Positions 42,629 to 63,505 of a stretch of 64,000 nucleotides of DNA are shown in pieces. The notes beneath the pieces are model-generated. The model was given only the letters and a program-made list of their open reading frames with translations, made no database searches and was not told where the DNA came from. This DNA comes from a virus. A program made the translations under genes and the position numbers. Each line of letters begins with the position of its first letter. The stretch's first letter is position 1. The stretch covers positions 1 to 64,000 of the IMG/VR virus record IMGVR_UViG_3300037231_000129; one strand, given 5' to 3'.

Positions 42629-44209
42629 TCATGCCGCGGCTGCGATGGCCCCGGTGACCGTCGCAAACCCGCTGATCGTCGGCGCCACGGTTCCCTTATG
42701 GGTGCAACCAACCAACACCAGTTTCGAAGTCGGCATATAGCTGCCAGCCTGGATTTCACCAGCAACACCACCGCCGTCGAAAATGACATCTGTCATTGTA
42801 ACAGTGGCACCCGTCGCCTGGTTTAAGGCGCTCTCCATGCTGTATCCGAAGAACAGCGTATTCGCCGCATTGGCTCGCAGCGCGATCGTGGTTCCGGTGA
42901 TCGACACCAGGCCACCGTCAGGGATGTCGACGACACTTCCGGAAACCGCGCCGCCGTCGGCCGCGCCGCCCGTCAGCACGCCGCCGGTGATGGTCGTTGT
43001 TCCCGCCCGTGATTTGACCGCGTGTGTGGAAAGCGGACCGGTCGATACAGTCGATGTCCCCAGCACGAATTTTGTGGTCGGACTGCCGCCGACATACATC
43101 TCGTGCGTGTAACCATCGCCAGCACCATTGCCGTGGATGTTGCTGCCGTTGACCGTGATGTTGCTGGCGAAGGTCAGAATTCCGTCCTGACAGCCGGTGA
43201 TCTCGACATCGGTCAGCGTGAAGCCGATCCCGGCCGCGCCGTCTCGCACTCCCGCCGCGTTGTTGCCCAAGGACGCTGGCACCGCCGCACCTTGAATCGT
43301 CAGCTTCTCGATCGTCACGCCGGCCACCGTTGGGACCAAGACGGCCTTGTTCTCATATGGCGGCAAATCGGTGGCGTTGATCGTTGTCACCCCCGTCCCG
43401 GCGCCAGTCACGATCCCGGCCACATTGATCGCGCCGGTACCGACAAACGTCCCGGCGCCCAAGGTCAGCGTCTGGCCTGTCGCCAGATCCGTTAGAAGCG
43501 TGGCAAGCGTTCCCGATTTGGCGACACCAGCGATTGTGCCGGCGACGGTGGTCAGCGCGGGCGCAGGCACCGGGATCGGAGCCGCTGGGACGGCACTTTG
43601 AGGCAGGAACGTCATATTCGAGCCGTTCGAGTTGAAAATCGACGTGGCATACGAAGCACTCCCGGTGCCCCGCGAGTTCGCCGCGTCCTGATTACACCAC
43701 CACGGGATCAGGCCGACGGTTGCCGCGTTGATCCACAGTCCATTCAAGCCTGGCCCGGTTGCATTGATCTCGAAGCCGGTCATGCCCGTGAAATCGCCGT
43801 TGATAGTGAAAACCTGCGATCCGGTCATGGTCTCGCCAACGTCCGAGGTCACGGTCAGGGGGCCGGCGAGCGCCGTTTGCTCGGTTCCCTGATTCATGAT
43901 GAGCACGAATTCGCAGCTGCCCGCCGTGCCCGGGTTGTTCGAAAGGGTGAGCTGGATGCTGTTGGGGCCTTTGCCGAGAGTGACTGGCGCTCCGGCTGCA
44001 ATTCCCGTCGGCATTGCGAGGGGATAAGCGTTGGTGCTGCCGGTGACGACCGGCGTCGTGCCGCCTCCCGTGGTGCCACCTCCCGTGGTACCGCCTCCCG
44101 TGCCCGTCCCGCTGCCTGTTACGCTGGCACCGCCGCCTGTTAAGACGGTGGTCTCGACGGTGGTCGATGAAAGGGTCGTGGTCTTCGTGGTGGTGTTGTT
44201 GCCGCTCAT
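42629..44209 (-). CDS. Gly/Thr-rich protein with right-handed beta-helix (pectin-lyase-like) domain
   Basis: AGGAG RBS; NAAGVR, ITGCQDGILT, HGNGAGDGYTHEMYVG, HAVKSRA, VDIPDGG. Confidence 0.75.
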   Translation of the reverse strand: MSGNNTTTKTTTLSSTTVETTVLTGGGASVTGSGTGTGGGTTGGGTTGGGTTPVVTGSTNAYPLAMPTGIAAGAPVTLGKGPNSIQLTLSNNPGTAGSCEFVLIMNQGTEQTALAGPLTVTSDVGETMTGSQVFTINGDFTGMTGFEINATGPGLNGLWINAATVGLIPWWCNQDAANSRGTGSASYATSIFNSNGSNMTFLPQSAVPAAPIPVPAPALTTVAGTIAGVAKSGTLATLLTDLATGQTLTLGAGTFVGTGAINVAGIVTGAGTGVTTINATDLPPYENKAVLVPTVAGVTIEKLTIQGAAVPASLGNNAAGVRDGAAGIGFTLTDVEITGCQDGILTFASNITVNGSNIHGNGAGDGYTHEMYVGGSPTTKFVLGTSTVSTGPLSTHAVKSRAGTTTITGGVLTGGAADGGAVSGSVVDIPDGGLVSITGTTIALRANAANTLFFGYSMESALNQATGATVTMTDVIFDGGGVAGEIQAGSYMPTSKLVLVGCTHKGTVAPTISGFATVTGAIAAAA

Positions 44210-44243
44210 GGGTGTCTCCTCTGAAATCATAGAAAAATTGCAA

Positions 44244-45469: not shown

Positions 45470-45545
45470 TGGTGCCCAGGGATGGAATCGAACCACCGAC
45501 TCCCGCGTTTTCGGCGCGGAGCTCTACCAACTGAGCTACCCGGGC
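45470..45545 (-). tRNA. tRNA-Phe(GAA) with encoded CCA
   Basis: GCCCGGG TA GCTC..GAGC T CCGCG-CCGAAAA-CGCGG GAGTC GGTGG-TTCGATT-CCATC CCTGGGC ACCA; 76 nt. Confidence 0.9.
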
Positions 45546-45549
45546 AACG

Positions 45550-45649
45550 AGCCTGGTGAGGGATTCGAACCCCCGACCTCTCTACAGTCCCACAGCCGTG
45601 AAGCTGACCCTGCTTGAGTGCTCTGACCGAATAACTGAGCTACCCAGAC
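45550..45649 (-). tRNA. tRNA-like element with greatly extended anticodon arm and no CCA
   Basis: Acceptor GTCTGG/CCAGGC, D arm GCTC/GAGC, T arm GGGGG-TTCGAAT-CCCTC; anticodon arm about 39 nt. Confidence 0.65.
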
Positions 45650-46967: not shown

Positions 46968-47333
46968 ATGTTCAAAAAGTTCTTCCGCAAAATCGTCCCG
47001 GCAGTTCCTGGCTCCCCAAGGGGTCCTTTGGTTCTTGTCGTGACACCTCCGACGGCTCTTGCCGAGCCTGTCGTCGATTTCCTGACCCCGTTCATCCAGT
47101 TCTCTCGGATGCGGATCAATTCGCTTCGGATGTCCAGTTGCTGTCCCACCTCTGTGGTGGCACGGAAGCTGCGAAGGATCGAAGCAAAAATCGATAATTT
47201 CCAAAGACTGGTTATCTGCCCAACCGGTCTCGATCTTGAACTCTCGATCATCATGGTCGTCGAGCTCATCAACGGGATTACCGCCGATTTGGACCAGGTC
47301 GTCAGTGAAATGGGAGTTGTCGAAACCGTCTAG
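46968..47333 (+). CDS. hypothetical protein (array gene)
   Basis: TAAGGAACACCACC-ATG leader. Confidence 0.65.
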   Translation: MFKKFFRKIVPAVPGSPRGPLVLVVTPPTALAEPVVDFLTPFIQFSRMRINSLRMSSCCPTSVVARKLRRIEAKIDNFQRLVICPTGLDLELSIIMVVELINGITADLDQVVSEMGVVETV

Positions 47334-47348
47334 CGCCGCGTGAGCGGC

Positions 47349-47405
47349 GTGCCTTCCCTGTGATCAAGCAGGGCAGAGAGCTGGCTGCGCTCCAGCGAAA
47401 GGCAC
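47349..47405 (+). ncRNA. hammerhead-like element, type III topology, CAGAGA core (copy A1)
   Basis: GTGCCT T CCCTG/CAGGG CAGAGA GCTGG/CCAGC GAA AGGCAC. Confidence 0.55.
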
Positions 47406-47411
47406 ACCCCA

Positions 47412-47780
47412 ATGTTCAACGCAATCCTCCCCGTCGTTCGTCCCGTCGCCATTGCTGGCGCCCGGGTTGCCGGCGGCATCGCCATTGACGTGACCAAGAC
47501 CGCTGCCGGCGTCGTTGTCGGTATCGCGCTCGCGGTCGGTCTGGTTCGTGGTCTCAACAAAATCGAAACCACGTATCAGACGGTCAAGACCCGCCGCCAG
47601 GCGCGGCAGATCGCCAAATCGGTGGCTCAGGAAATCGCAAAACGCAATCTCCTGGCCTCCAACGGCTTTCTGCACCGCGACCAAGTGGCTCCTCAGCTGC
47701 ACGCTGAGATCCAACGGATGATCGACAATGGCCGTCTGGTCCTTGTCGCCGATCCGATCTCCGATGAGCTCGCCGCGTAA
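47412..47780 (+). CDS. hypothetical protein (array gene)
   Basis: GAAAGG-CACACCCCA-ATG. Confidence 0.75.
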   Translation: MFNAILPVVRPVAIAGARVAGGIAIDVTKTAAGVVVGIALAVGLVRGLNKIETTYQTVKTRRQARQIAKSVAQEIAKRNLLASNGFLHRDQVAPQLHAEIQRMIDNGRLVLVADPISDELAA

Positions 47781-47825
47781 GCGGCGTGCCTTCGGGCCTC
47801 CTAAGACCACGCCGCACCATGCGGC

Positions 47826-47884
47826 GTGCCTATCCAGCACCGCTGGACAGAGAGCCGAGACCTGTCCGTCTCGGCGAAAGGCAC
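47826..47884 (+). ncRNA. hammerhead-like element A2
   Basis: GTGCCT A TCCAGC/GCTGGA CAGAGA GCCGAGAC/GTCTCGGC GAA AGGCAC. Confidence 0.55.
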
Positions 47885-47892
47885 ACCCCAAT

Positions 47893-48162
47893 ATGCCCAC
47901 CCCCACAGAAGAAATCCTCGATCCCTCCGATGAAGAGCTGGTCGAGACCCTACGCTGCATCAACAGCCTGGCTCGGCTCCGTGAAATCATGGGCGGCCGC
48001 CTCGGCAGCTCTGATCCAACGGTCGCACTCTTGGTAGCGGTCATCTTCCGTCTCGAGCGCGACTACCAAACGGATTCGAGCGAGGCTCAGCGTGACGAAA
48101 TCAGACGCCTGGTGGCTTCGGAAAAAAGACACGAAATCACCAGCCTGCTGAATTCGCTATAA
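47893..48162 (+). CDS. hypothetical protein (array gene)
   Basis: Shared leader; 89 aa. Confidence 0.7.
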   Translation: MPTPTEEILDPSDEELVETLRCINSLARLREIMGGRLGSSDPTVALLVAVIFRLERDYQTDSSEAQRDEIRRLVASEKRHEITSLLNSL

Positions 48163-48181
48163 GAACCTGGCGCAAGCCAGG

Positions 48182-48236
48182 GCCTTCCCCACCCCGTGGG
48201 GCAGAGAGCCGGGACCTGTCAGTTCTGGCGAAAGGC
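48182..48236 (+). ncRNA. hammerhead-like element A3
   Basis: GCCT T CCCCAC/GTGGGG CAGAGA GCCGGGAC/GTTCTGGC GAA AGGC. Confidence 0.55.
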
Positions 48237-48244
48237 ACACCCCA

Positions 48245-48565
48245 ATGACTTTCAAATCCTTCCTGTCGGCGACCGGCAGCGCGATCGGTGCCACGGCAAA
48301 GATCATGAACGACGTCGCCATGACCAATGCACGTGGCAATCTCCTGTTGAGGCTTCCGACCGAGATCGACAAGATCGATACCGCATTCGGAACCTTGACA
48401 ACCGATCTTCACATGCTCGCCGCCTACGGCAAACCGAGCTCTTCCGAGCAGCTTCGCGCTACGCGGGAGATCTCTGACAAACTGGCAGCTTTGGCCGCCA
48501 AGCTTGTCGCAACATCCTCCGAACTCGCGGCTTTGGCCGGGGCCAAGAAGATGAGCCCCGCATGA
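48245..48565 (+). CDS. hypothetical protein (array gene)
   Basis: Shared leader. Confidence 0.75.
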   Translation: MTFKSFLSATGSAIGATAKIMNDVAMTNARGNLLLRLPTEIDKIDTAFGTLTTDLHMLAAYGKPSSSEQLRATREISDKLAALAAKLVATSSELAALAGAKKMSPA

Positions 48566-48571
48566 CGGGGC

Positions 48572-48625
48572 GCCTTTCCAGCACCGCTGGACAGAGAGCC
48601 GAGACCTGTCGTCTCGGCGAAAGGC
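48572..48625 (+). ncRNA. hammerhead-like element A4
   Basis: GCCT T TCCAGC/GCTGGA CAGAGA GCCGAGAC/GTCTCGGC GAA AGGC. Confidence 0.55.
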
Positions 48626-48632
48626 ACACCCA

Positions 48633-48755
48633 ATGCTCAAAACTCTTACCCGAAAACTCCTGGTCACAGGCGTTGCGCTCCTATCGGGCGCCACGGTGGC
48701 CGGGATCACTCTCGCGATCATCTCCGTCAAGGGCGCGAAAGGCGCACCCGAATAA
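48633..48755 (+). CDS. 40-aa single-TM peptide (MLKTLTRKLLVTGVALLSGATVAGITLAIISVKGAKGAPE)
   Basis: Hand-translated; shared leader. Confidence 0.65.
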   Translation: MLKTLTRKLLVTGVALLSGATVAGITLAIISVKGAKGAPE

Positions 48756-48779
48756 CCAAACTGCCCCTCTCGTAGGGGC

Positions 48780-48831
48780 GCCTTCCCCGCACCGCGGGGC
48801 AGAGAGCATCCCTGCAATGGATGCGAAAGGC
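48780..48831 (+). ncRNA. hammerhead-like element A5
   Basis: GCCT T CCCCGC/GCGGGG CAGAGA GCATCC/GGATGC GAA AGGC. Confidence 0.55.
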
Positions 48832-48839
48832 ACACCCCA

Positions 48840-49226
48840 ATGAGTTTTGCTTCATCCTTCGGCCAGCCGCTCGCGCGTACTGGCCTTAATTTGCTTCGTG
48901 GGTCCACGATCCAGGCCATCGCCCGCACTGTGGGCGTTGTCGCTGCCGCGGGTCTCCTCGGAGCAGTCTACCACGTCGTCAACGACGAGGCCCGCAACGT
49001 CGTCCAGCTCGCCCGCTTGCGAGGCCAGTACCGCCGGCACCGCCACGATCGAATACTCGTAGCGACGCTCGGCACGGCTCTGGATCCGCAGCTGCAATAC
49101 CAGCTGCTCTCGTCGCGGGATGCATTCAAACGCATCACACGCCTGCTGGTCGATCCGGCCGTCGACGACGTCTCACGTAACCAGCTGCGCCAAGCCATTG
49201 TCATGGCCTGCTCGCAGCCGGTTTAG
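48840..49226 (+). CDS. hypothetical protein with TM segment (array gene)
   Basis: Shared leader. Confidence 0.75.
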   Translation: MSFASSFGQPLARTGLNLLRGSTIQAIARTVGVVAAAGLLGAVYHVVNDEARNVVQLARLRGQYRRHRHDRILVATLGTALDPQLQYQLLSSRDAFKRITRLLVDPAVDDVSRNQLRQAIVMACSQPV

Positions 49227-49353
49227 AACGGGTATCATACCCTTTCTCGTTCCCGCTTTGGTCCACCAAAGCGGGCGGGATACCCTCTCGACTGAGAGGG
49301 GAGTCCAGCCGGCCGCTCTGAAAGCGCCGACGAAATCCCGAAAGGCACACCCA

Positions 49354-49770
49354 ATGGCCAAATCCAAGCTGTCCGAACGCATGCTTCCTGTGCGAGGTTC
49401 CAAGCAATCACATGAATTGCTGATAGAGCTGGTCGCCGAACTTAAAATGGCGGCCGAAGAAGGCACTGTCTTGCATTATGCGCCTGTTTTGGACGCTTAC
49501 GTGTCAAAGCGTAAAGCCAAACAGATAAACAAATGCTTTGAGGAAATGCTCGACGAAGTTTTGCTTCGAAAATTGACGACCCTCGAATTTTTGTTTGTTG
49601 CGGCTAGACTCTGGCATTTCGCCAAGCTAGAAACAAATATGACGATGCCGATCCAAGCACGTCCATACTTACCCAAGCTGTTCGATCTCGCCGAAGAATT
49701 CGGCGTCGCGGCAGCGGATATCGCACAAATCGAAATCGACCATGTCGTGAACCCGCCGCCCGATGATTGA
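49354..49770 (+). CDS. hypothetical protein (array gene)
   Basis: CGAAAGGCACACCCA-ATG. Confidence 0.75.
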   Translation: MAKSKLSERMLPVRGSKQSHELLIELVAELKMAAEEGTVLHYAPVLDAYVSKRKAKQINKCFEEMLDEVLLRKLTTLEFLFVAARLWHFAKLETNMTMPIQARPYLPKLFDLAEEFGVAAADIAQIEIDHVVNPPPDD

Positions 49771-49778
49771 TCGGGCGG

Positions 49779-49833
49779 GCCTTCCCCGCACCGCGGGGCA
49801 GAGAGCCGAGACCTGCACGTCCCGGCGAAAGGC
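49779..49833 (+). ncRNA. hammerhead-like element A6
   Basis: GCCT T CCCCGC/GCGGGG CAGAGA GCCGAGAC/GTCCCGGC GAA AGGC. Confidence 0.55.
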
Positions 49834-49840
49834 ACACAAA

Positions 49841-49966
49841 ATGCCGTTCCTCCTCGCCCTGGCATTCATTTACCTGCCGGGTTGGGTCTGGCCCGCGCTC
49901 ATCATTTTCGCGTTGATCGCGCTGCTAGTGCCCGGCCTTGCACCCCCCAGAACCGGCGGTAAGTAA
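49841..49966 (+). CDS. 41-aa hydrophobic peptide
   Basis: Shared leader; MPFLLALAFIYLPGWVWPALIIFALIALLVPG. Confidence 0.6.
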   Translation: MPFLLALAFIYLPGWVWPALIIFALIALLVPGLAPPRTGGK

Positions 49967-50002
49967 CCGCCGGCGCCGGCATTCAACCGGCTTGAGAAAG
50001 GG
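49946..50002 (+). ncRNA. hammerhead-like element, type II topology, UUGANAA core (B1)
   Basis: CCC A GAA CCGGCGGT/ACCGCCGG C GCCGG/CCGGC TTGAGAA A GGG. Confidence 0.6.
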
Positions 50003-50008
50003 ACAACC

Positions 50009-50284
50009 ATGACCATAGACCCCAACCTCCTCCGACCTGGTCATCGTCTGCGGTTCACCCAATCGCTGGACGTCTTCACCCTGGACCACATCTTTCCCAA
50101 AGGTGCGGCGGGCACGATCGAAGACGCCGAACTCGACGCCCTCCCGGGTCTGCCAATCCTGTATCTGCGCATGGATGACGTCTTTCCCTGCTTGAGCAGC
50201 TTCAAGAATGTTCTGCAGATCTTCCGGTCTAATGACCTGGGTGCGGAGGTGACCGACGCTGAATTCGAACCATGCGGCTTCTAA
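50009..50284 (+). CDS. hypothetical protein (array gene)
   Basis: AAAGGGA RBS. Confidence 0.7.
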   Translation: MTIDPNLLRPGHRLRFTQSLDVFTLDHIFPKGAAGTIEDAELDALPGLPILYLRMDDVFPCLSSFKNVLQIFRSNDLGAEVTDAEFEPCGF

Positions 50285-50321
50285 GCCGCCTGGTGCCAGG
50301 ACACCCCTGGCTTGATAAGGA
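50264..50321 (+). ncRNA. hammerhead-like element B2
   Basis: TTC GAA CCA.GCGGC/GCCGC.TGG T GCCAGG/CCTGGC TTGATAA GGA. Confidence 0.6.
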
Positions 50322-50328
50322 CATCCAC

Positions 50329-50934
50329 ATGTTACTCACCGACGACCAGGCCACACGCATCAACGGCCTTCTCCGTGCCACGCGGCCGTTCGCCAAATTG
50401 CCGGCGACGAACCAGCGACCCATGAACACCACGTGGCAAGCACTGAACGACACGTTGATGTCGATGCGGCTCCCCCTCTATCACAGATCCCTGCGCAAGC
50501 CGGTTCCCACGGAGAAGGTCTACGAGGCCGCCGTGCAGAATGGGCTTGCACTCCTCGGCGCGTTCGCGGCGACGCTTGGCACCAAACAGGCCATCGTCAG
50601 CAGCCGCGGCCGCTGGATCGACCGCATCAGCTTTCAGCCCCGTCCCGACGGGATGAACTGGAATGCGGCGCATGCCATCTCCCCGGAGTATCTGGTCCAA
50701 AAACGGGCCAGTGATCCGAACCAAGCTGTCTCGTTGGAGGATTTCCTGTTCATGGCCGCCAAGACTACCTACGTGGTAGCCCGGCGGTCCGCAGGCGCGA
50801 TCCCCGACATTACCGCTACCTTCGCCTTCGACGTCGCCTCCGATGGTGCGCCGACGGTCGATGGGGTGGTGCGAGAACACGGCGCCCAGACGCATAACGC
50901 GAGCTTGCTGCCGCTTTCTCCTTTCCGCCTTTGA
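50329..50934 (+). CDS. hypothetical protein (array gene)
   Basis: TAAGGA RBS. Confidence 0.7.
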   Translation: MLLTDDQATRINGLLRATRPFAKLPATNQRPMNTTWQALNDTLMSMRLPLYHRSLRKPVPTEKVYEAAVQNGLALLGAFAATLGTKQAIVSSRGRWIDRISFQPRPDGMNWNAAHAISPEYLVQKRASDPNQAVSLEDFLFMAAKTTYVVARRSAGAIPDITATFAFDVASDGAPTVDGVVREHGAQTHNASLLPLSPFRL

Positions 50935-51018
50935 GAAAGGCGCGCCCTTCGGGGCCGCTTATCCATGCACATCATCATGGACTGAAGACTTGATTTCCCG
51001 CCTGATCATTACCATATC

Positions 51019-51802
51019 AGTTGGGTCATTAAAATCCGAATGATCTGGGCCCGGTTAGCGCCCTAGAGTGCGGCGCTTCTGCGCGGCTTGAGACGATCCT
51101 GGTGCGACGGTCGCACTTGCAATTTAGCAGGCGAGATGTTGAGGAAGACATCAATAGAGATTCCGCATCGTTGTGGTACTTGCAAGAACGCGGAAAAGGC
51201 CAATGCTCGACTGTAAGGCCAGTTGGGATTTGAGTACGGCAGCACTTGTAACCCTGCCCGAACACGGGGGCGCCACCCTCCAAGCCTAAACCTCTTCTAT
51301 TTCGTCCAATGAGTATCGACCAAAATGGCTCCGCTATAGTCCATCGGCATGCCGGTCATCCGGATTGATGCCAGTTAGAATGCGGTTCCGAGTGCCTGGG
51401 GTCTATGGCCCCCAGGCCGCCATGAGTAGTCGAGCCATCCGTAGTGGTAGAAGTTGGTTTGACTATGGAAATCAAACTGATGGAATTCACCGCGGAGATC
51501 CTATCCGGCAAGCCATTGGCGACCGCAAGGGCGCCGAGAATGCCGAGAGTTCATGCAGGCCCATGAGCAGGATAGGATCTGGTTTCCGTCGCATAACGCG
51601 GCGGGCTGAGAACTCGCCCGGGGCCTGGTCGCAATCCAGTAGCCAGAGCCCCCGGGCGGCAGAAACCAGATATCATTCCCATAGCATAGCGGTCCGAGTA
51701 GCTTAGTGCGCTCGACTGCTAAGGCCGGCAGCTTCTGCTGTGTTTCGAAAGGAACCCGCGTTGGGTGTGCGCGGCGGCCGGCATCTCACCCACCACCCAA
51801 CT
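51019..51802 (+). ncRNA. candidate large structured non-coding RNA (about 780 nt)
   Basis: No credible ORF; many nested helices; 5'/3' closing helix AGTTGGGT/ACCCAACT; followed by a terminator. Confidence 0.6.
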
Positions 51803-51804
51803 TC

Positions 51805-51839
51805 CCCCCTGACAGGACCCCCTGTCAGGGGGTTTTTTT
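51805..51839 (+). terminator. strong intrinsic terminator
   Basis: CCCCCTGACAGG-ACCC-CCTGTCAGGGGG followed by T7. Confidence 0.85.
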
Positions 51840-59207: not shown

Positions 59208-59400
59208 ATTTGCTGTATTTTCAATACCTAAACGATTCCAGTCGCTTGATCGCCAGAGTCGGCATCACCATATCTATTGGGCAATAACCACACGCAAAAA
59301 TTTACCACCGGGACTCGGTTTTTTGTGCCGATCCATAGAACGGCCGGTCTGCATGCACGCATGCGAATCGTCTGTGTTCCCGTTTTGAACGTGGTTTTCA

Positions 59401-59484
59401 TATCCGAAACCGCTCCGTGGCCGTGCCTCCCTCCCATGACCACGGGACGATCCGCCGGCGATCAAGCCGGCACTGATGAGGATA
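59401..59484 (+). ncRNA. type II hammerhead-like element with canonical CUGAUGA/GAAA core (C1)
   Basis: TATCC GAAA [imperfect stem III, CCGTGG/CCACGG] TC C GCCGGC/GCCGGC A CTGATGA GGATA. Confidence 0.7.
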
Positions 59485-59488
59485 CCCC

Positions 59489-59722
59489 ATGACAACACGC
59501 ATCCCGCAGGTCGTTCTGGACGCTTACGTCGCGCGTTGGTCGCATCTCGGGATATTGGCCGGGAAGGTCAATGATCCTGCTGTCACCGGCCTGCGCGCCG
59601 CACGCACATTCGCCCAGACGGTTTGCTGTCTCGAATCACCTCCCACGGTCACCATCAACCAGGTTCGCGGGCTTGCCCGCGTGGCCAATGGCGAACCCTG
59701 GGAAGCGATCCCCGACGTTTGA
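59489..59722 (+). CDS. hypothetical protein (array gene)
   Basis: GAGGA RBS from the element. Confidence 0.7.
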   Translation: MTTRIPQVVLDAYVARWSHLGILAGKVNDPAVTGLRAARTFAQTVCCLESPPTVTINQVRGLARVANGEPWEAIPDV

Positions 59723-59775
59723 AACCCCGGCCCGCCGGGTTCCCGGCGCAATCTGGCGCCGGACTGATGAGGAAC
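59721..59775 (+). ncRNA. hammerhead-like element C2
   Basis: GAAA C CCCGG/CCGGG TT C CCGGCGC/GCGCCGG A CTGATGA GG; stem II weak. Confidence 0.55.
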
Positions 59776-59780
59776 ACCCC

Positions 59781-60026
59781 ATGCCACCAAGAAGACGCGT
59801 TGAATGGCTCGCGGCGAAAGCCGAGGGTCAATGCAACGACGTGCCCTACGACACCGAGCTGGTGAACAGCAACGGCGTCTCCATCCATTTTTGGCTGGGC
59901 GACCGTGAACCCACCGACGAACTGCTCGACGATCTCTCACGACGTGCCTGCAATCGGCGGGACATCGTGCGGATCCAATTCTCCGAGGGTCAGCCCACCG
60001 GCTTCTGGGCTCACTCCGATTTCTGA
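59781..60026 (+). CDS. hypothetical protein (array gene)
   Basis: GAGGAACACCCC-ATG. Confidence 0.7.
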   Translation: MPPRRRVEWLAAKAEGQCNDVPYDTELVNSNGVSIHFWLGDREPTDELLDDLSRRACNRRDIVRIQFSEGQPTGFWAHSDF

Positions 60027-60027
60027 C

Positions 60028-60082
60028 GAAACCCCGGCTCAGCCGGGTTTCCGGCGCAATCCTGCGTCGGGCTGATGAAAGG
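60028..60082 (+). ncRNA. hammerhead-like element C3
   Basis: GAAA C CCCGGC/GCCGGG TT TCCGGCGC/GCGTCGGG CTGATGA; stem II poor. Confidence 0.5.
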
Positions 60083-60088
60083 AATCAC

Positions 60089-60601
60089 ATGCCCCTTACC
60101 GTCCTTCGCGACGGTGCAGCACCGGTCATTCTTTCCAACCGGACTGTCTTTGATCAACTTCCCGACGAGATTGACGTAGCCGAGCTGATGAGCTCGATCC
60201 GCGCCGGCGACACCGTGCCCGTTACCTTACGGGAGATCGGTGCTGTCCGGCTGACGTCGCCAGGCATGGTGCCAACGCTGGATTACAATCCGCCCCAGCA
60301 ATCGTTGGCTCTGTCCACGGCGCATCCCATGCCCGTGGATCGGCCGTTCGAACTCGAATGCCGGATCCTGGTTCCAATCGATGCCATGATCAATTGCCAT
60401 GCCCCCTCCAAAAAGGAGGCTATGGAATTGGCCAACAAGGTTTTCGATGGTGTCAGGCAGGCGCCTTCGAGTTTCCAGGTGGTGGTGAACCGCGATGATA
60501 TAGCGGAAATCTTCCACGATCTGGAGAACGGCATGTCGCGCAGACGCTTCGACCTGATTGGCGCCCACAACCTGGTGGTCAATCGAACGGAAGAACGATG
60601 A
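60089..60601 (+). CDS. hypothetical protein (array gene)
   Basis: AAAGGA RBS. Confidence 0.7.
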   Translation: MPLTVLRDGAAPVILSNRTVFDQLPDEIDVAELMSSIRAGDTVPVTLREIGAVRLTSPGMVPTLDYNPPQQSLALSTAHPMPVDRPFELECRILVPIDAMINCHAPSKKEAMELANKVFDGVRQAPSSFQVVVNRDDIAEIFHDLENGMSRRRFDLIGAHNLVVNRTEER

Positions 60602-60614
60602 AAGAATCCAGCCC

Positions 60615-61190
60615 ATGGCAAATCTGACTGTTTACCGCCAGCAAGAGCCACCGTTTTCAATGACGATGGCCAACTGCCTGGCGGCCGCTGCCACCCAGGA
60701 AGACACCGATCTGATTGCCCTGTCCATGCGCACCAAGCGCCCTGCTCTGGTGGGCCTCGACAGCCGGTCGTCGATCATTCTACCCGGTGGAGACCTCGAC
60801 GGACGTACCACGTTCGAAGATCTCTACGACACCTGCCTGACATTGGTCGACCTGCAGCACATGCGGGAGGCCAATGTTAGCAACCCTGAGGATGTGCCAC
60901 TGCGAGCCTACAGGCTCGAAGTGTTGTTTGCGATCGATGGCACCTGCCAAATACCGATTGCTCTTCTCGCCAGTTCTATCGGCGATGCACGCCCCCGTTT
61001 GCGTACTCTCCTCGCCAAGGATGTTATGTTCCGCGAAGCCCTGTTTGACGCTGTCATTCAGGCTATCGACCGGAACTTTCGGGCTGAGGAGGATATCGTA
61101 TTCCGGGTGCGGGAGAGCAGCATGGACGATCGCTCCATCATCCCGCCCCTGCTCCCAGGGGCCGGGCCAGAGTGGCGCATTCTTGAGTAA
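60615..61190 (+). CDS. hypothetical protein
   Basis: ORF without a preceding element. Confidence 0.65.
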   Translation: MANLTVYRQQEPPFSMTMANCLAAAATQEDTDLIALSMRTKRPALVGLDSRSSIILPGGDLDGRTTFEDLYDTCLTLVDLQHMREANVSNPEDVPLRAYRLEVLFAIDGTCQIPIALLASSIGDARPRLRTLLAKDVMFREALFDAVIQAIDRNFRAEEDIVFRVRESSMDDRSIIPPLLPGAGPEWRILE

Positions 61191-61192
61191 GT

Positions 61193-61253
61193 GAAAACCC
61201 CGTAGCGGATACCGCCGCGGGGTTTTGCTTGCATTCAGCAAGCATTGATAAGG
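61193..61253 (+). ncRNA. hammerhead-like element B3 (A15.1-U16.1, UUGAUAA core)
   Basis: GAA AACCCCG/CGGGGTT T TGCTTGC/GCAAGCA TTGATAA GG; stem II weak. Confidence 0.55.
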
Positions 61254-61263
61254 AACACACCCA

Positions 61264-61506
61264 ATGTCTGACGAACCCAAGATCCTTGACGGGATCGCTA
61301 TGCCCCCGATCCACCCCTCGATCACCATGGACTTGGTTCTCGAAGCCATGGATCGCTCACCAAGCGAGACAGACGCCCTCGGCTTCTGCCTGGCGTGTGG
61401 CGAGAGCGTGCGAGAGATCGCTACGAGCACCAGGCGCGAGACATGCGGCTTCTGCGGTTGCCCTGCCGTCTTCGGCGCCGAGGAAATCATGTTCATTCTC
61501 GCCTGA
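61264..61506 (+). CDS. zinc-finger phage protein
   Basis: GFCLACG...CGFCG...VFGAEE. Confidence 0.75.
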   Translation: MSDEPKILDGIAMPPIHPSITMDLVLEAMDRSPSETDALGFCLACGESVREIATSTRRETCGFCGCPAVFGAEEIMFILA

Positions 61507-61557
61507 TCCGAACCTGGGCCACGCCCGGGCGCGGGCATTTCGCCCGCTTGAAAAGGA
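61507..61557 (+). ncRNA. hammerhead-like element B4
   Basis: TCC GAA CCTGGGC/GCCCGGG C GCGGGC/GCCCGC TTGAAAA GGA. Confidence 0.62.
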
Positions 61558-61564
61558 ACACCCC

Positions 61565-61810
61565 ATGTCGAAAACCGCTCAGGAGATCCTGGATGCCCTG
61601 CCCCTGCCGCCGATCCATTCGAGCGTCACGCCCGAGCGGCTCACCGAGGCGCTCACCCGCTATCAGCAGACCTTGGATAACCCAGGGTTTTGTTTGAGTT
61701 GCGGCGCCGAGGCCGAGGGCTGCGAACCCGATGCCCGTCGCTACCACTGCGACGAGTGCGGACAGCCCGCCGTCTTCGGCGCCGAGGAACTCGTGCTGAT
61801 GACGATGTAG
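61565..61810 (+). CDS. zinc-finger phage protein, paralog of the previous gene
   Basis: GFCLSCG..EPDARRYHCDECG..VFGAEE. Confidence 0.8.
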   Translation: MSKTAQEILDALPLPPIHSSVTPERLTEALTRYQQTLDNPGFCLSCGAEAEGCEPDARRYHCDECGQPAVFGAEELVLMTM

Positions 61811-61819
61811 GAGGCAGCC

Positions 61820-62041
61820 ATGGCAGCGCGTCTCTGGAATCCTCACATTGGCACCCTGAAAGGCGGCCTACATCATAGTGTGGCCTACATCATTCAGATG
61901 CGGGTGCCACGCGATGAAGGCTATGGCTCGCCCATGGTCGCCCTGTCCGATTACACCACTTCCCGCCGTACGGCGGATAGCTGGTTGGCGGATGCTCGGG
62001 TGAAGGCCGGCCGCTATCTCAGGGATACCCGAAACAAATAA
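61820..62041 (+). CDS. hypothetical protein
   Basis: AGGAGG RBS. Confidence 0.65.
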   Translation: MAARLWNPHIGTLKGGLHHSVAYIIQMRVPRDEGYGSPMVALSDYTTSRRTADSWLADARVKAGRYLRDTRNK

Positions 62042-62090
62042 CCGAACCCGGGCTACACCCGGGTGCGAGCATCCCGCTCGCTTGAAAAGG
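62042..62090 (+). ncRNA. hammerhead-like element B5
   Basis: CC GAA CCCGGG/CCCGGG T GCGAGC/GCTCGC TTGAAAA GG. Confidence 0.6.
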
Positions 62091-62099
62091 AAACACCCC

Positions 62100-62693
62100 A
62101 TGGCTTCCTATCGTGAACTCGCGGCCGCCATCGAGGCGCTCTGCCGCGCTATTCGTGCTCGAACGATATCGCCTGCCTCGGCGTTGCTCACGTCATGTGA
62201 AGCGCTTGCCGCGGCCGCTCGCCGTGGCATCGTTGCTCAATCGCCCTGGACGCCCTTCGAGCCAGCGACAGCGCCGCCGATCTCCGAACGGGCACTGCAG
62301 CTCACCGCTGAAAGACTGAACCTGCCCCTTGAGGACGTCCGTCGTGAGTTGACCGACGAAATCCAGGGACCGCAGATCTTCATCAACAGCCGCTACCAGG
62401 TCGCCATGCGGCTTTGGGAACCCGGCGTCATGTATCTGTCGATCAAGCGTCTGGACCAGCAACCCATCCGGTCCTGGCGCGACCTGCAGCGGATCAAGAC
62501 CGAACTGGTTGGCCCCGAAAACGAAGGGGTCGAACTGTTCCCCGCGGAATCGCGGCTCATCGATCGGGCCAACCAGTTCCACCTGTTCATTTTGACCGAT
62601 CCAGCGGCGCGGTTCCCGTTCGGTTACAAGCACACCCGCGACGTCGGCCCTCCCGTTGGCCTTGGCGAGGCGCAGGAACCATTCGAGGCATAA
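62100..62693 (+). CDS. conserved phage protein (DUF7694-like C-terminus)
   Basis: LSIKRLD..WRDLQRIK.ELVGPE.E.VELFPAESRL.D.ANQFHL; family name tentative. Confidence 0.7.
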   Translation: MASYRELAAAIEALCRAIRARTISPASALLTSCEALAAAARRGIVAQSPWTPFEPATAPPISERALQLTAERLNLPLEDVRRELTDEIQGPQIFINSRYQVAMRLWEPGVMYLSIKRLDQQPIRSWRDLQRIKTELVGPENEGVELFPAESRLIDRANQFHLFILTDPAARFPFGYKHTRDVGPPVGLGEAQEPFEA

Positions 62694-62694
62694 T

Positions 62695-62739
62695 CCGAAC
62701 CCCTTCGGGGGTGCGAGCAATCAAGCTCGCTTGAAAAGG
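62695..62739 (+). ncRNA. hammerhead-like element B6
   Basis: CC GAA CCCC-TTCG-GGGG T GCGAGC/GCTCGC TTGAAAA GG. Confidence 0.6.
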
Positions 62740-62747
62740 CTACACCC

Positions 62748-62950
62748 ATGTCGAGGCACCCTCAATTCAGAATGGGATTTAAGACCGGCAACAATGCTTT
62801 CGATTACGGTCTGGGCATCCTGGAATCCATCGCATTTTGACCGAGATCAACGCCAAAATCGCTGATGGCGATCGAATAGGTAAGATCATGGACAGCAACG
62901 GCAATTCCATCGGCCAGTGGTCACTGGAATTGCCGGACGATAAAGATTGA
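62748..62950 (+). pseudogene. frameshifted small phage gene (FKTGNNAF... / RILTEINAKIADG..GKIMDSNGNSIGQW)
   Basis: The first frame stops after 30 aa; the continuation is in another frame near 62830. Confidence 0.6.
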
Positions 62951-62951
62951 G

Positions 62952-63003
62952 CCGAACCCGCGGCGCAAGCCCGGGCGCGAGCGATCAAGCTCGCTTGATA
63001 AGG
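62952..63003 (+). ncRNA. hammerhead-like element B7
   Basis: CC GAA CCCG.GGC-GCAA-GCC CGGG C GCGAGC/GCTCGC TTGATAA GG. Confidence 0.62.
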
Positions 63004-63012
63004 AAACACCCA

Positions 63013-63447
63013 ATGGGATACACACATTTTTGGTTTGCACCCGAAGCAATCAGACCCCGCATCTGGTGGGTCGTGATGGCCGACGCGCTTAAGTTGGTGG
63101 AAGCATTCCCAGGCCCTGGTGGCCTCTGCATGGGCATCGAGAACCAAGCCCAGCGAGCCTTCGTCTCACGCGAGGAAATCCGCTTCAATGGCGGACCAGG
63201 CGCGCAGGCGGAGGATTTCAGGCTCACCCGGGAAGCCGGCAAACGGTATAGCTCCTGCAAGACCCAGCATCAGCCCTATGAACGGCTGGTCTGTGCTATA
63301 CTTGCCTCCACCGCTGATCGTACTCGGCTCATTCGCGTCACCAGCGATGGCAATCATCACGATTGGTTACCATATATAGAGTGGGCGTCCACGGTGTTGC
63401 GGCGTCCACTCCCGATGCCGATCCATACCAACGAAATCACAGGGTAA
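63013..63447 (+). CDS. conserved phage protein (MGYTH.W...IRFNG...CKT..PY...V.SDG)
   Basis: Shared leader; recognisable motif pattern. Confidence 0.75.
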   Translation: MGYTHFWFAPEAIRPRIWWVVMADALKLVEAFPGPGGLCMGIENQAQRAFVSREEIRFNGGPGAQAEDFRLTREAGKRYSSCKTQHQPYERLVCAILASTADRTRLIRVTSDGNHHDWLPYIEWASTVLRRPLPMPIHTNEITG

Positions 63448-63505
63448 CGAACCCCACCGCCCGGTGGGGACGCCGGCGATCAAGCCGGCACTGAGGAGTA
63501 ACCCT
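63441..63505 (+). ncRNA. hammerhead-like element C4 (CUGAGGA core, C15.1-G16.1)
   Basis: AGGGTAAC GAA CCCCACC/GGTGGGG A C GCCGGC/GCCGGC A CTGAGGA GTAACCCT. Confidence 0.68.

Follow-up and report, generated by a model that had tools for sequence, protein, structure and literature searches.

The purpose of bacterial and phage hammerheads is an open question, and it is raised again by an element that precedes small genes in the IMG/VR virus record IMGVR_UViG_3300037231_000129 (98,024 bp, rated 96% complete, with a peat metagenome run as its best DNA match). The window analyzed here comprises the first 64,000 nucleotides of that record. Between 47,349 and 49,833 it holds six copies of an element that is laid out like a type III hammerhead, has a departing core and stands shortly before a start codon. 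A first-pass annotation of the sequence had offered three functions for the element: a new ribozyme variant, a switchable hammerhead, or a catalytically dead derivative kept as a translational leader. What, then, does it do? The copies belong to an undescribed family of hammerhead-like leaders that measure about 50-60 nt and occur in alphaproteobacterial phages and prophages. A structure that combines a three-way junction with a 3-bp pseudoknot, and places the Shine-Dalgarno sequence (SD) in the closing helix, is well supported. The function that we favor, to which the sequences lead us to give roughly an even chance, is that of a hammerhead-derived leader, locked by the pseudoknot, that would occlude the SD of the following gene. 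With a hammerhead layout fused to a ribosome binding site and the “catalytic” turn held in a pseudoknot, the family also provides a model for how expression across long arrays of tiny early genes is controlled in some phages.

A repeated leader and its family

The search pattern CAGAGAG-N(8-38)-CGAAAGGC matches six times in the window, on the + strand only, against a mean of 0.01 in shuffled sequence, with CAGAGAG starting at 47374, 47848, 48202, 48592, 48800, and 49799. The six copies are real and a chance pattern is excluded; the coordinates assigned to them in the first-pass annotation are right as read. All six have the order GCCU-H / hairpin / CAGAGA / G-hairpin-C / GAAAGGC, in which H, the equivalent of hammerhead site 17, is U in five copies and A in one. 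This three-helix layout is the minimum-energy fold of each copy, and the loop of the second hairpin begins with CUG in every case, as had been noticed from the DNA. The closing helix is referred to below as P1 and the two hairpins as stems I and II with loops I and II. Scores are from a covariance model, R1, built from 34 distinct copies; it contains no pseudoknot term, so the alignment of the loops was not fitted to the pseudoknot. The copies, their parts and the open reading frames (ORFs) behind them are as follows.

47351..47403, + strand: leader copy 1 (R1 61.4 bits, minimum-energy fold, sequence); P1 47351-54/47400-03; site-17 U 47355; stem I 47356-60/47369-73; loop I 47361-68; pseudoknot CAG 47374-76 with CUG 47385-87; linker AGA 47377-79; stem II 47380-84/47392-96; GAA 47397-99; ATG 47412 of a 122-aa ORF
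47828..47882, + strand: leader copy 2 (R1 53.9 bits, fold z-score -5.8); site 17 is A 47832; stem I 47833-38/47842-47; loop I 47839-41; CAG 47848-50 with CUG 47862-64; stem II 47854-61/47868-75; GAAAGGC 47876-82; ATG 47893 of an 89-aa ORF
48182..48236, + strand: leader copy 3 (R1 57.3 bits, fold); stem I 48187-92/48196-201; loop I 48193-95; CAG 48202-04 with CUG 48216-18; stem II 48208-15/48222-29, including two G.U pairs; GAAAGGC 48230-36; ATG 48245 of a 106-aa ORF
48572..48625, + strand: leader copy 4 (R1 57.8 bits, fold z-score -5.0); stem I 48577-82/48586-91; loop I 48583-85; CAG 48592-94 with CUG 48606-08; stem II 48598-605/48611-18; GAAAGGC 48619-25; ATG 48633 of a 40-aa ORF
48780..48831, + strand: leader copy 5 (R1 64.1 bits, fold, gene families); stem I 48785-90/48794-99; loop I 48791-93; CAG 48800-02 with CUG 48812-14; stem II 48806-11/48819-24; GAAAGGC 48825-31; ATG 48840 of a 128-aa ORF
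49779..49833, + strand: leader copy 6 (R1 56.9 bits, fold z-score -4.0); stem I 49784-89/49793-98; loop I 49790-92; CAG 49799-801 with CUG 49813-15; stem II 49805-12/49819-26, with one A.C mismatch; GAAAGGC 49827-33; ATG 49841 of a 41-aa ORF

The family alignment contains 70 distinct copies at E ≤0.005, and the family thus has at least 70 members. R1 finds the 6 copies of this phage, 16 in a 91.5-kb phage and 19 in a 104.6-kb phage; in bacteria there are 2 in an alphaproteobacterial metagenome-assembled genome and 8 in a prophage-like stretch of a genome of the same order (hereafter G049). Metagenome and genome scans place further copies on at least about 12 metagenome contigs. Orthologous downstream genes retain the leader across phages while the leader stems differ, and the ORF behind copy 5 has homologs in four other records with the same leader in front.

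Carriers of the leader are rare. An exact-pattern scan of viral contigs returned true members, having both hairpins and a downstream ATG, on two other phage contigs only, the other 62 matches being without the stems. In the same contigs the loose pattern CAGAGAG...CGAAAGGC gave mostly single chance matches, and the degenerate cores YRGARA and CUGANAA gave no new true members. R1 matched only two genomes, G003 and G049, of an order-level sample of 151; samples of 150 genomes each, one from the family of G049 and one from the class that includes G003, added no carrier. No related phage turned up when the 533-aa protein encoded at 42629-44230 was used as the query. Literature searches retrieved no published description of the leaders and Rfam 15 has no matching family, and they form a candidate new Rfam family. 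In the window and its relatives, Rfam searches at the gathering thresholds and at E up to 10 detected only tRNA and sub-threshold Hammerhead_II, each on other elements.

Is the fold conserved beyond the window? Over the 70 copies 97.4% of cells are paired, compared with 77% in shuffles, two-sided changes occur at 13 of 18 pairs, and the signal is lost when the partners are slid. Helices 1, 2, and 4 are each 96.9-98.2% paired, with two-sided changes at 11 of their 15 pairs. P1 covaries at its two outer pairs (GCC/GGC, GGC/GCC, CCC/GGG, UCC/GGA, ACC/GGU, and GUC/GAC all occur), stem I at five of six pairs and stem II at four of five. The alignment therefore has the type III arrangement, in which three helices meet at one junction, follow one another as III-I-II and leave stem III open. 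At the junction-side pair of stem I, 33 copies have U.G, 28 have C-G and 8 have U-A, and none has C.A. The opposite strand would have C.A wherever this one has U.G (33/70), which assigns the structure to the sense RNA. Loop I is tiny throughout the family and mostly ends in CC (ACC, AUCC, GCC, CACC); no pairing partner for it was found.

The pseudoknot between the junction and loop II

Loop II opens with three bases that pair, in 97.6% of cells of the 70-copy alignment, with the bases that open the junction. The first pair is C-G in 64 copies, U-A in one and G-C in one; the second is A-U in 59, U-A in 7 and G-C in one; the third is G-C in 66 and G.U in one. Doubly changed cells number 10, as against 1.0 +/- 0.9 in shuffles, with none of 500 shuffles reaching 10, and here too the signal collapses when the strands are slid. 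Four variants carry this result: CGG:CCG on a metagenome contig, UAG:CUA in the 104-kb phage, CUG:CAG in six copies of G049, and GUG:CAC in two G049 copies, one of them below the alignment threshold. Each variant junction shares its element with the matching loop while neighboring elements keep CAG:CUG, and hence the pairing is in cis. These compensatory changes at core positions 3 and 4 bear out the suggestion of the first-pass annotation that loop II pairs with the core, and the covariance-model search for homologs that it had proposed shows loop-core complementarity largely kept across the 70 copies. The covariation thus points to a 3-bp pseudoknot in which the junction CAG, at hammerhead positions 3-5, pairs with the CUG of loop II. 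The geometry would be of the H type, with a linker of 3-4 nt (A, one or two variable bases, A) crossing the deep groove of a stem II of 5-8 bp, and the other 2-5 bases of loop II would cross back over.

A longer pairing had also been read from the window, in which the boundary between stem I and the core tracks the loop. As a description this is accurate for five copies, GGACAG going with CUGUC(C) at 47828 and 48572, and GGCAG with CUGC at 47351, 48780, and 49779; the sixth copy (48182) combines GGCAG with CUGUC, giving a G.U pair. It does not extend to the homologs, where the base before CAG and the fourth loop base are paired in 73.5% of cells compared with 73.6 +/- 2.1% in shuffles, with A:C in 4 and G:A in 15. 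An extended pseudoknot of GGACAG with CUGUCC was consequently rejected as a family feature, these bases being at chance; it also leaves no loop for crossing back if stem II is formed.

Could the repeats instead act as DNA, as a promoter, recombination site or miniature mobile element, with no function in the RNA? Such a DNA-level or selfish repeat would account for copies that are multiple, intergenic and equipped with inverted repeats. The explanation is nevertheless highly improbable, as the copies have one orientation relative to the genes and a fixed distance to the ATG, their stems covary as the sequence diverges, G.U pairs are abundant on the sense strand only, the pseudoknot covaries, and no promoter-like signal stands out.

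Ribosome site, hammerhead likeness, and function

The ATG lies 4-11 nt 3' of P1 in 65 of the 70 copies, most commonly at 6 nt, across an A/C-rich spacer; from the ends of the window copies the gap is 7-10 nt. The sequence GAAAGG, formed by GAA and the 3' arm of P1, is accordingly placed to serve as the SD, an identity that the 16S gene of the carrier G049 supports: it ends in CCTCCTTTC, to whose CCUUUC the GAAAGG is complementary. By the same complementarity, GCCUU(U)C in the 5' arm imitates the tail of the 16S rRNA. In the minimum-energy folds of all six window copies AAGGC is paired with GCCUU, and where the SD arm varies in the family (AGCC, AGGG, AGGA, AGGU, AGAC) the 5' arm compensates. 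The SD is thus both at a proper distance from the start codon and paired in a conserved fold, as expected of an SD-occluding leader. Neither the identity of GAAAGG nor the mimicry of the 16S tail was part of the first-pass annotation.

How might such a leader work? It occupies the interval between a hairpin abutting the upstream stop codon (hairpin 0, described below) and the next start codon, and folds into P1 (GCCU/AGGC), the stem I hairpin, a short purine linker and the stem II hairpin. The former catalytic turn would be recruited into the pseudoknot, so that the junction is locked and the linker A-G-A runs along stem II. Once folded, the leader would hide the ribosome site of each small gene, and translation would presumably be lowered and be off by default. 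The SD could then be released in either of two ways: ribosomes or a factor might displace the 4-5 bp of P1, or slow residual self-cleavage after GCCU-H might detach exactly the anti-SD arm. If this reading holds, the family would show plainly how a ribozyme scaffold can be turned into a translational leader without catalysis.

There are precedents for an SD hidden in this manner. In the preQ1-II and SAM-II riboswitch platforms an H-type pseudoknot lies beside a helix that hides the ribosome binding site directly upstream of the start codon, as in the leaders; the leaders differ in having neither sequence nor Rfam similarity to them, in their many copies per genome and in preceding orphan phage genes. 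A second comparison is provided by the SAS/ESAS elements of Cluster K mycobacteriophages, which occur in 11-19 copies per genome before a subset of non-structural genes, include the ribosome site, have an upstream inverted repeat at about half of the sites, and are presumed to act in translation (PMC3203893). A conserved ribosome-site motif, multiple copies and a position before a gene subset are common to both, whereas SAS/ESAS have a different sequence (GGGATAGGAGCCC) and other hosts, and are without a three-way junction, pseudoknot or hammerhead-like layout. Such start-associated repeats make it conceivable that the leader is an operator or aptamer whose ligand, a small molecule or a protein of the phage or the host, sets translation of the small early genes, its likeness to a hammerhead being convergent. 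Up to 19 copies per genome before unrelated orphan genes would suit this, as would a compact conserved fold, invariant unpaired purines and an occluded SD. We nevertheless regard it as improbable: no candidate binding partner was identified, no riboswitch family matched, and type II-like neighbors together with GUGAUCA and CAGAUGA intermediates argue for common descent rather than convergence.

The likeness itself is extensive. With the type III hammerhead of RF00008 (clan CL00010) the leaders share the helix order III-I-II with stem III open, GAA before the A-U pair, a non-G site 17, a G-C-closed stem II, invariant G5, A6, and G12, an A9 that is kept in 69 of 70 copies, and positions 3 and 8 that are mostly complementary. 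GAA is found in 64 of the 70 copies (GCA in 2, GCU in 1, and three with one extra base), the U-A pair beside the junction in all 70, and H17 is U in 59, C in 6, A in 5, and never G. The G12-A13-A14 strand, the A15.1-U16.1 pair and the non-G H17 are thus in place, and with the three covarying helices they confirm the type III layout that had been recognized in the window.

The departures concern the core. Instead of CUGANGA, 56 of 70 copies have CAGAGA as the junction strand, with A at position 4 and position 7 absent, and no copy has a CUGANGA core (0/70). The formula “U4 changed to A, position 7 missing”, drawn from the window, fits those 56 copies; in the remainder the strands CUGACAA, CUGAGAA, CUGAAAA, UAGAAA, CGGAGA, GUGAUCA, CAGAUGA, and CAGAGU occur. 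Nor does a covarying C3-G8 pair leave the rest of positions 3-5 free, as in a hammerhead: in the leaders these three bases are paired to loop II and change together with it, G8, A13, A14 or A9 is missing from some copies, and stem III doubles as the SD/anti-SD helix. The Rfam hammerhead models (RF00008, RF00163, and RF02275-7) matched no copy at E up to 10 in the window plus 58 kb of relatives. Because these defining features fail, the family was not filed as a hammerhead. The other self-cleaving classes and riboswitches of Rfam 15 (twister, twister-sister, pistol, hatchet, HDV-like and others) likewise gave no match at E up to 10, and pistol, twister, hatchet, HDV-like and hairpin ribozyme topologies, as well as a tRNA-like RNase P substrate, were excluded by strand topology or by the missing Rfam match.

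The CAGAUGA strand comes from a copy in phage G001 (L460:3429-3481, - strand) that retains position 7, only U4 being changed to A; it has neither the CUG loop nor a downstream ATG. This copy may be an intermediate between the canonical and CAGAGA forms.

What decides between these possible functions? The three proposed in the first-pass annotation are inseparable by sequence data. The evidence leans toward the SD-occluding leader over the ribozyme options because copies with changes lethal to a hammerhead keep the remainder of the structure: C3.A8 in eight of 70, GCA or GCU for GAA in three, and A9U in one, with the stems kept in all and the pseudoknot in most. Descent of the leader from neighboring prophage hammerheads would be the most likely origin.

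Several observations weigh against that preference. The positions that never or rarely vary, namely G5, A6, A9, G12, A13, A14, the U-A pair and the non-G H17, are the essentials of a hammerhead. Of the 70 copies, 62 have bases at positions 3 and 8 that could pair (C-G 59, U-A 2, G-C 1, plus one weaker copy). Type II hammerhead-like elements scoring below the cut-off occupy equivalent places in this phage and in the G049 prophage, and hammerheads that lie clustered around single prophage genes in Agrobacterium and Azorhizobium are active (PMC3088659). A cut at the predicted hammerhead site would neatly remove the anti-SD arm. Finally, the independent compensatory events behind the pseudoknot number about four.

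An active or switchable variant hammerhead, in which the CAGAGA core cleaves after GCCU-H, is accordingly the main alternative, which we consider less likely. It would divide an early polycistronic transcript into mRNAs of one gene each, beginning with the stem I hairpin; the SD would be freed as the anti-SD arm of 4-5 bp leaves with the upstream fragment, hairpin 0 would protect the 3' end of that fragment, and the pseudoknot would either keep the RNA in an off-state, with cleavage slowed or regulated, or lock the product once it has been cut. The published clusters, too, have been proposed to process polycistronic phage RNA (PMC3088659). Besides the layout and the invariant bases, this explanation can draw on positions 3 and 8 swapping together in UAGAAA and GUGAUCA, and on hairpin 0 abutting the predicted cleavage site in 53 of 69 copies. 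The two positions that deviate, 4 and 7, are in physical contact in the hammerhead structure, where U4 touches the phosphate that joins A6 to N7. Variants such as U3-A8 occur in the published set, and natural variants of the core can stay active (PMC3088659). The leaders moreover stand one per gene beside type II-like elements, as in the active clusters (PMC3088659). With the hammerheads of Perreault et al. (2011; PMC3088659) they share the arrangement of one element per gene or short block in phage and prophage arrays of Alphaproteobacteria. Those hammerheads differ in keeping the consensus core and in having been shown to cleave; their active fold is stabilized by pseudoknots from loop I to loop II or to the 3' tail, whereas in the leaders it is the core that loop II pairs with. 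Several findings speak against catalysis. The catalytic pocket needs positions 3-5 free, and selection keeps them paired to loop II; eight copies have C3.A8, three have replaced A13 or A14 and one has A9U, with the motif otherwise intact; none of the Rfam hammerhead models matches the copies; and the SD/anti-SD pairing explains the conservation of GAAAGG and CCUU without catalysis.

In a switchable version, the core with A4 and without N7 would be sequestered reversibly by the loop II pseudoknot, and position 3 would pair with G8 when the core is active and with the loop G when it is locked. We consider this rather unlikely. If it were true, the leader would be the first natural hammerhead with a core gated by an internal alternative pairing and with cleavage tied to translation, and a single 55-nt element before each early gene would link RNA processing, timing and the activation of translation.

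The surrounding gene array

The six leaders punctuate a same-strand array of small orphan genes, to which the following features belong.

46968..50934, + strand: array of small orphan genes punctuated by leaders (from the ORF list and a promoter and terminator scan)
47335..47349, + strand: hairpin 0 in front of copy 1, GC-rich and without a U-tract (from folds)
about 47832 minus 20, 48166-48181, 48555-48571, 48763-48779, and 49756-49778, + strand: hairpin 0 in front of the other copies

The array is probably one operon. Within 46968-50934 no sigma-70-like internal promoter scored above chance level and no + strand terminator was found, and PHROG and Pfam scans of nine array ORFs gave nothing above noise. 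For positions 47300-49900 the runs listed were DNA metagenome runs only, with no RNA runs. Hairpin 0, GC-rich and without a U-tract in front of every window copy, lies just 3' of the upstream stop codon, or has the stop in its loop, and leaves 0-3 nt to GCCU; in the family, those 53 of 69 copies have a hairpin at this distance.

One further element interrupts the series. At 49276-49356 (+ strand) there is an unusual element resembling type III (GGGAU-A / stem / GAGUCCA / long stem II / GAAAUCCC) that escapes R1. Behind it comes a GAAAGGCACACCCAATG start region on its own, a case of the conserved ribosome site lying outside any closing helix.

A second array of small genes extends over 59400-63500 (+ strand, elements at 59.4-63.5 kb) and has a type II hammerhead-like element before each gene, with the SD inside or beside a CUGAUGA-like box (CUGAUGAGGAAC, UUGAAAAGGAAC, UUGAUAAGGAA). 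The Hammerhead_II match at 59717-59783 scores 25.8 bits, below the Rfam cut-off of 37, and an element of this kind is present in the G049 prophage (L582:15107-15170) at 22.8 bits.

Two other regions lie near the leaders. Upstream, 45470-45649 (- strand) contains a tRNA-Phe(GAA) at 45470-45545 and, adjoining it, a weak tRNA-like match (30.5 bits) that has a 33-nt insertion in the anticodon arm and is not called by ARAGORN. Downstream, about 0.85 kb at 50990-51839 (+ strand) is without a convincing ORF and finishes in a strong terminator (12-bp stem plus T7, 51805-51832); this region may be a large non-coding RNA.

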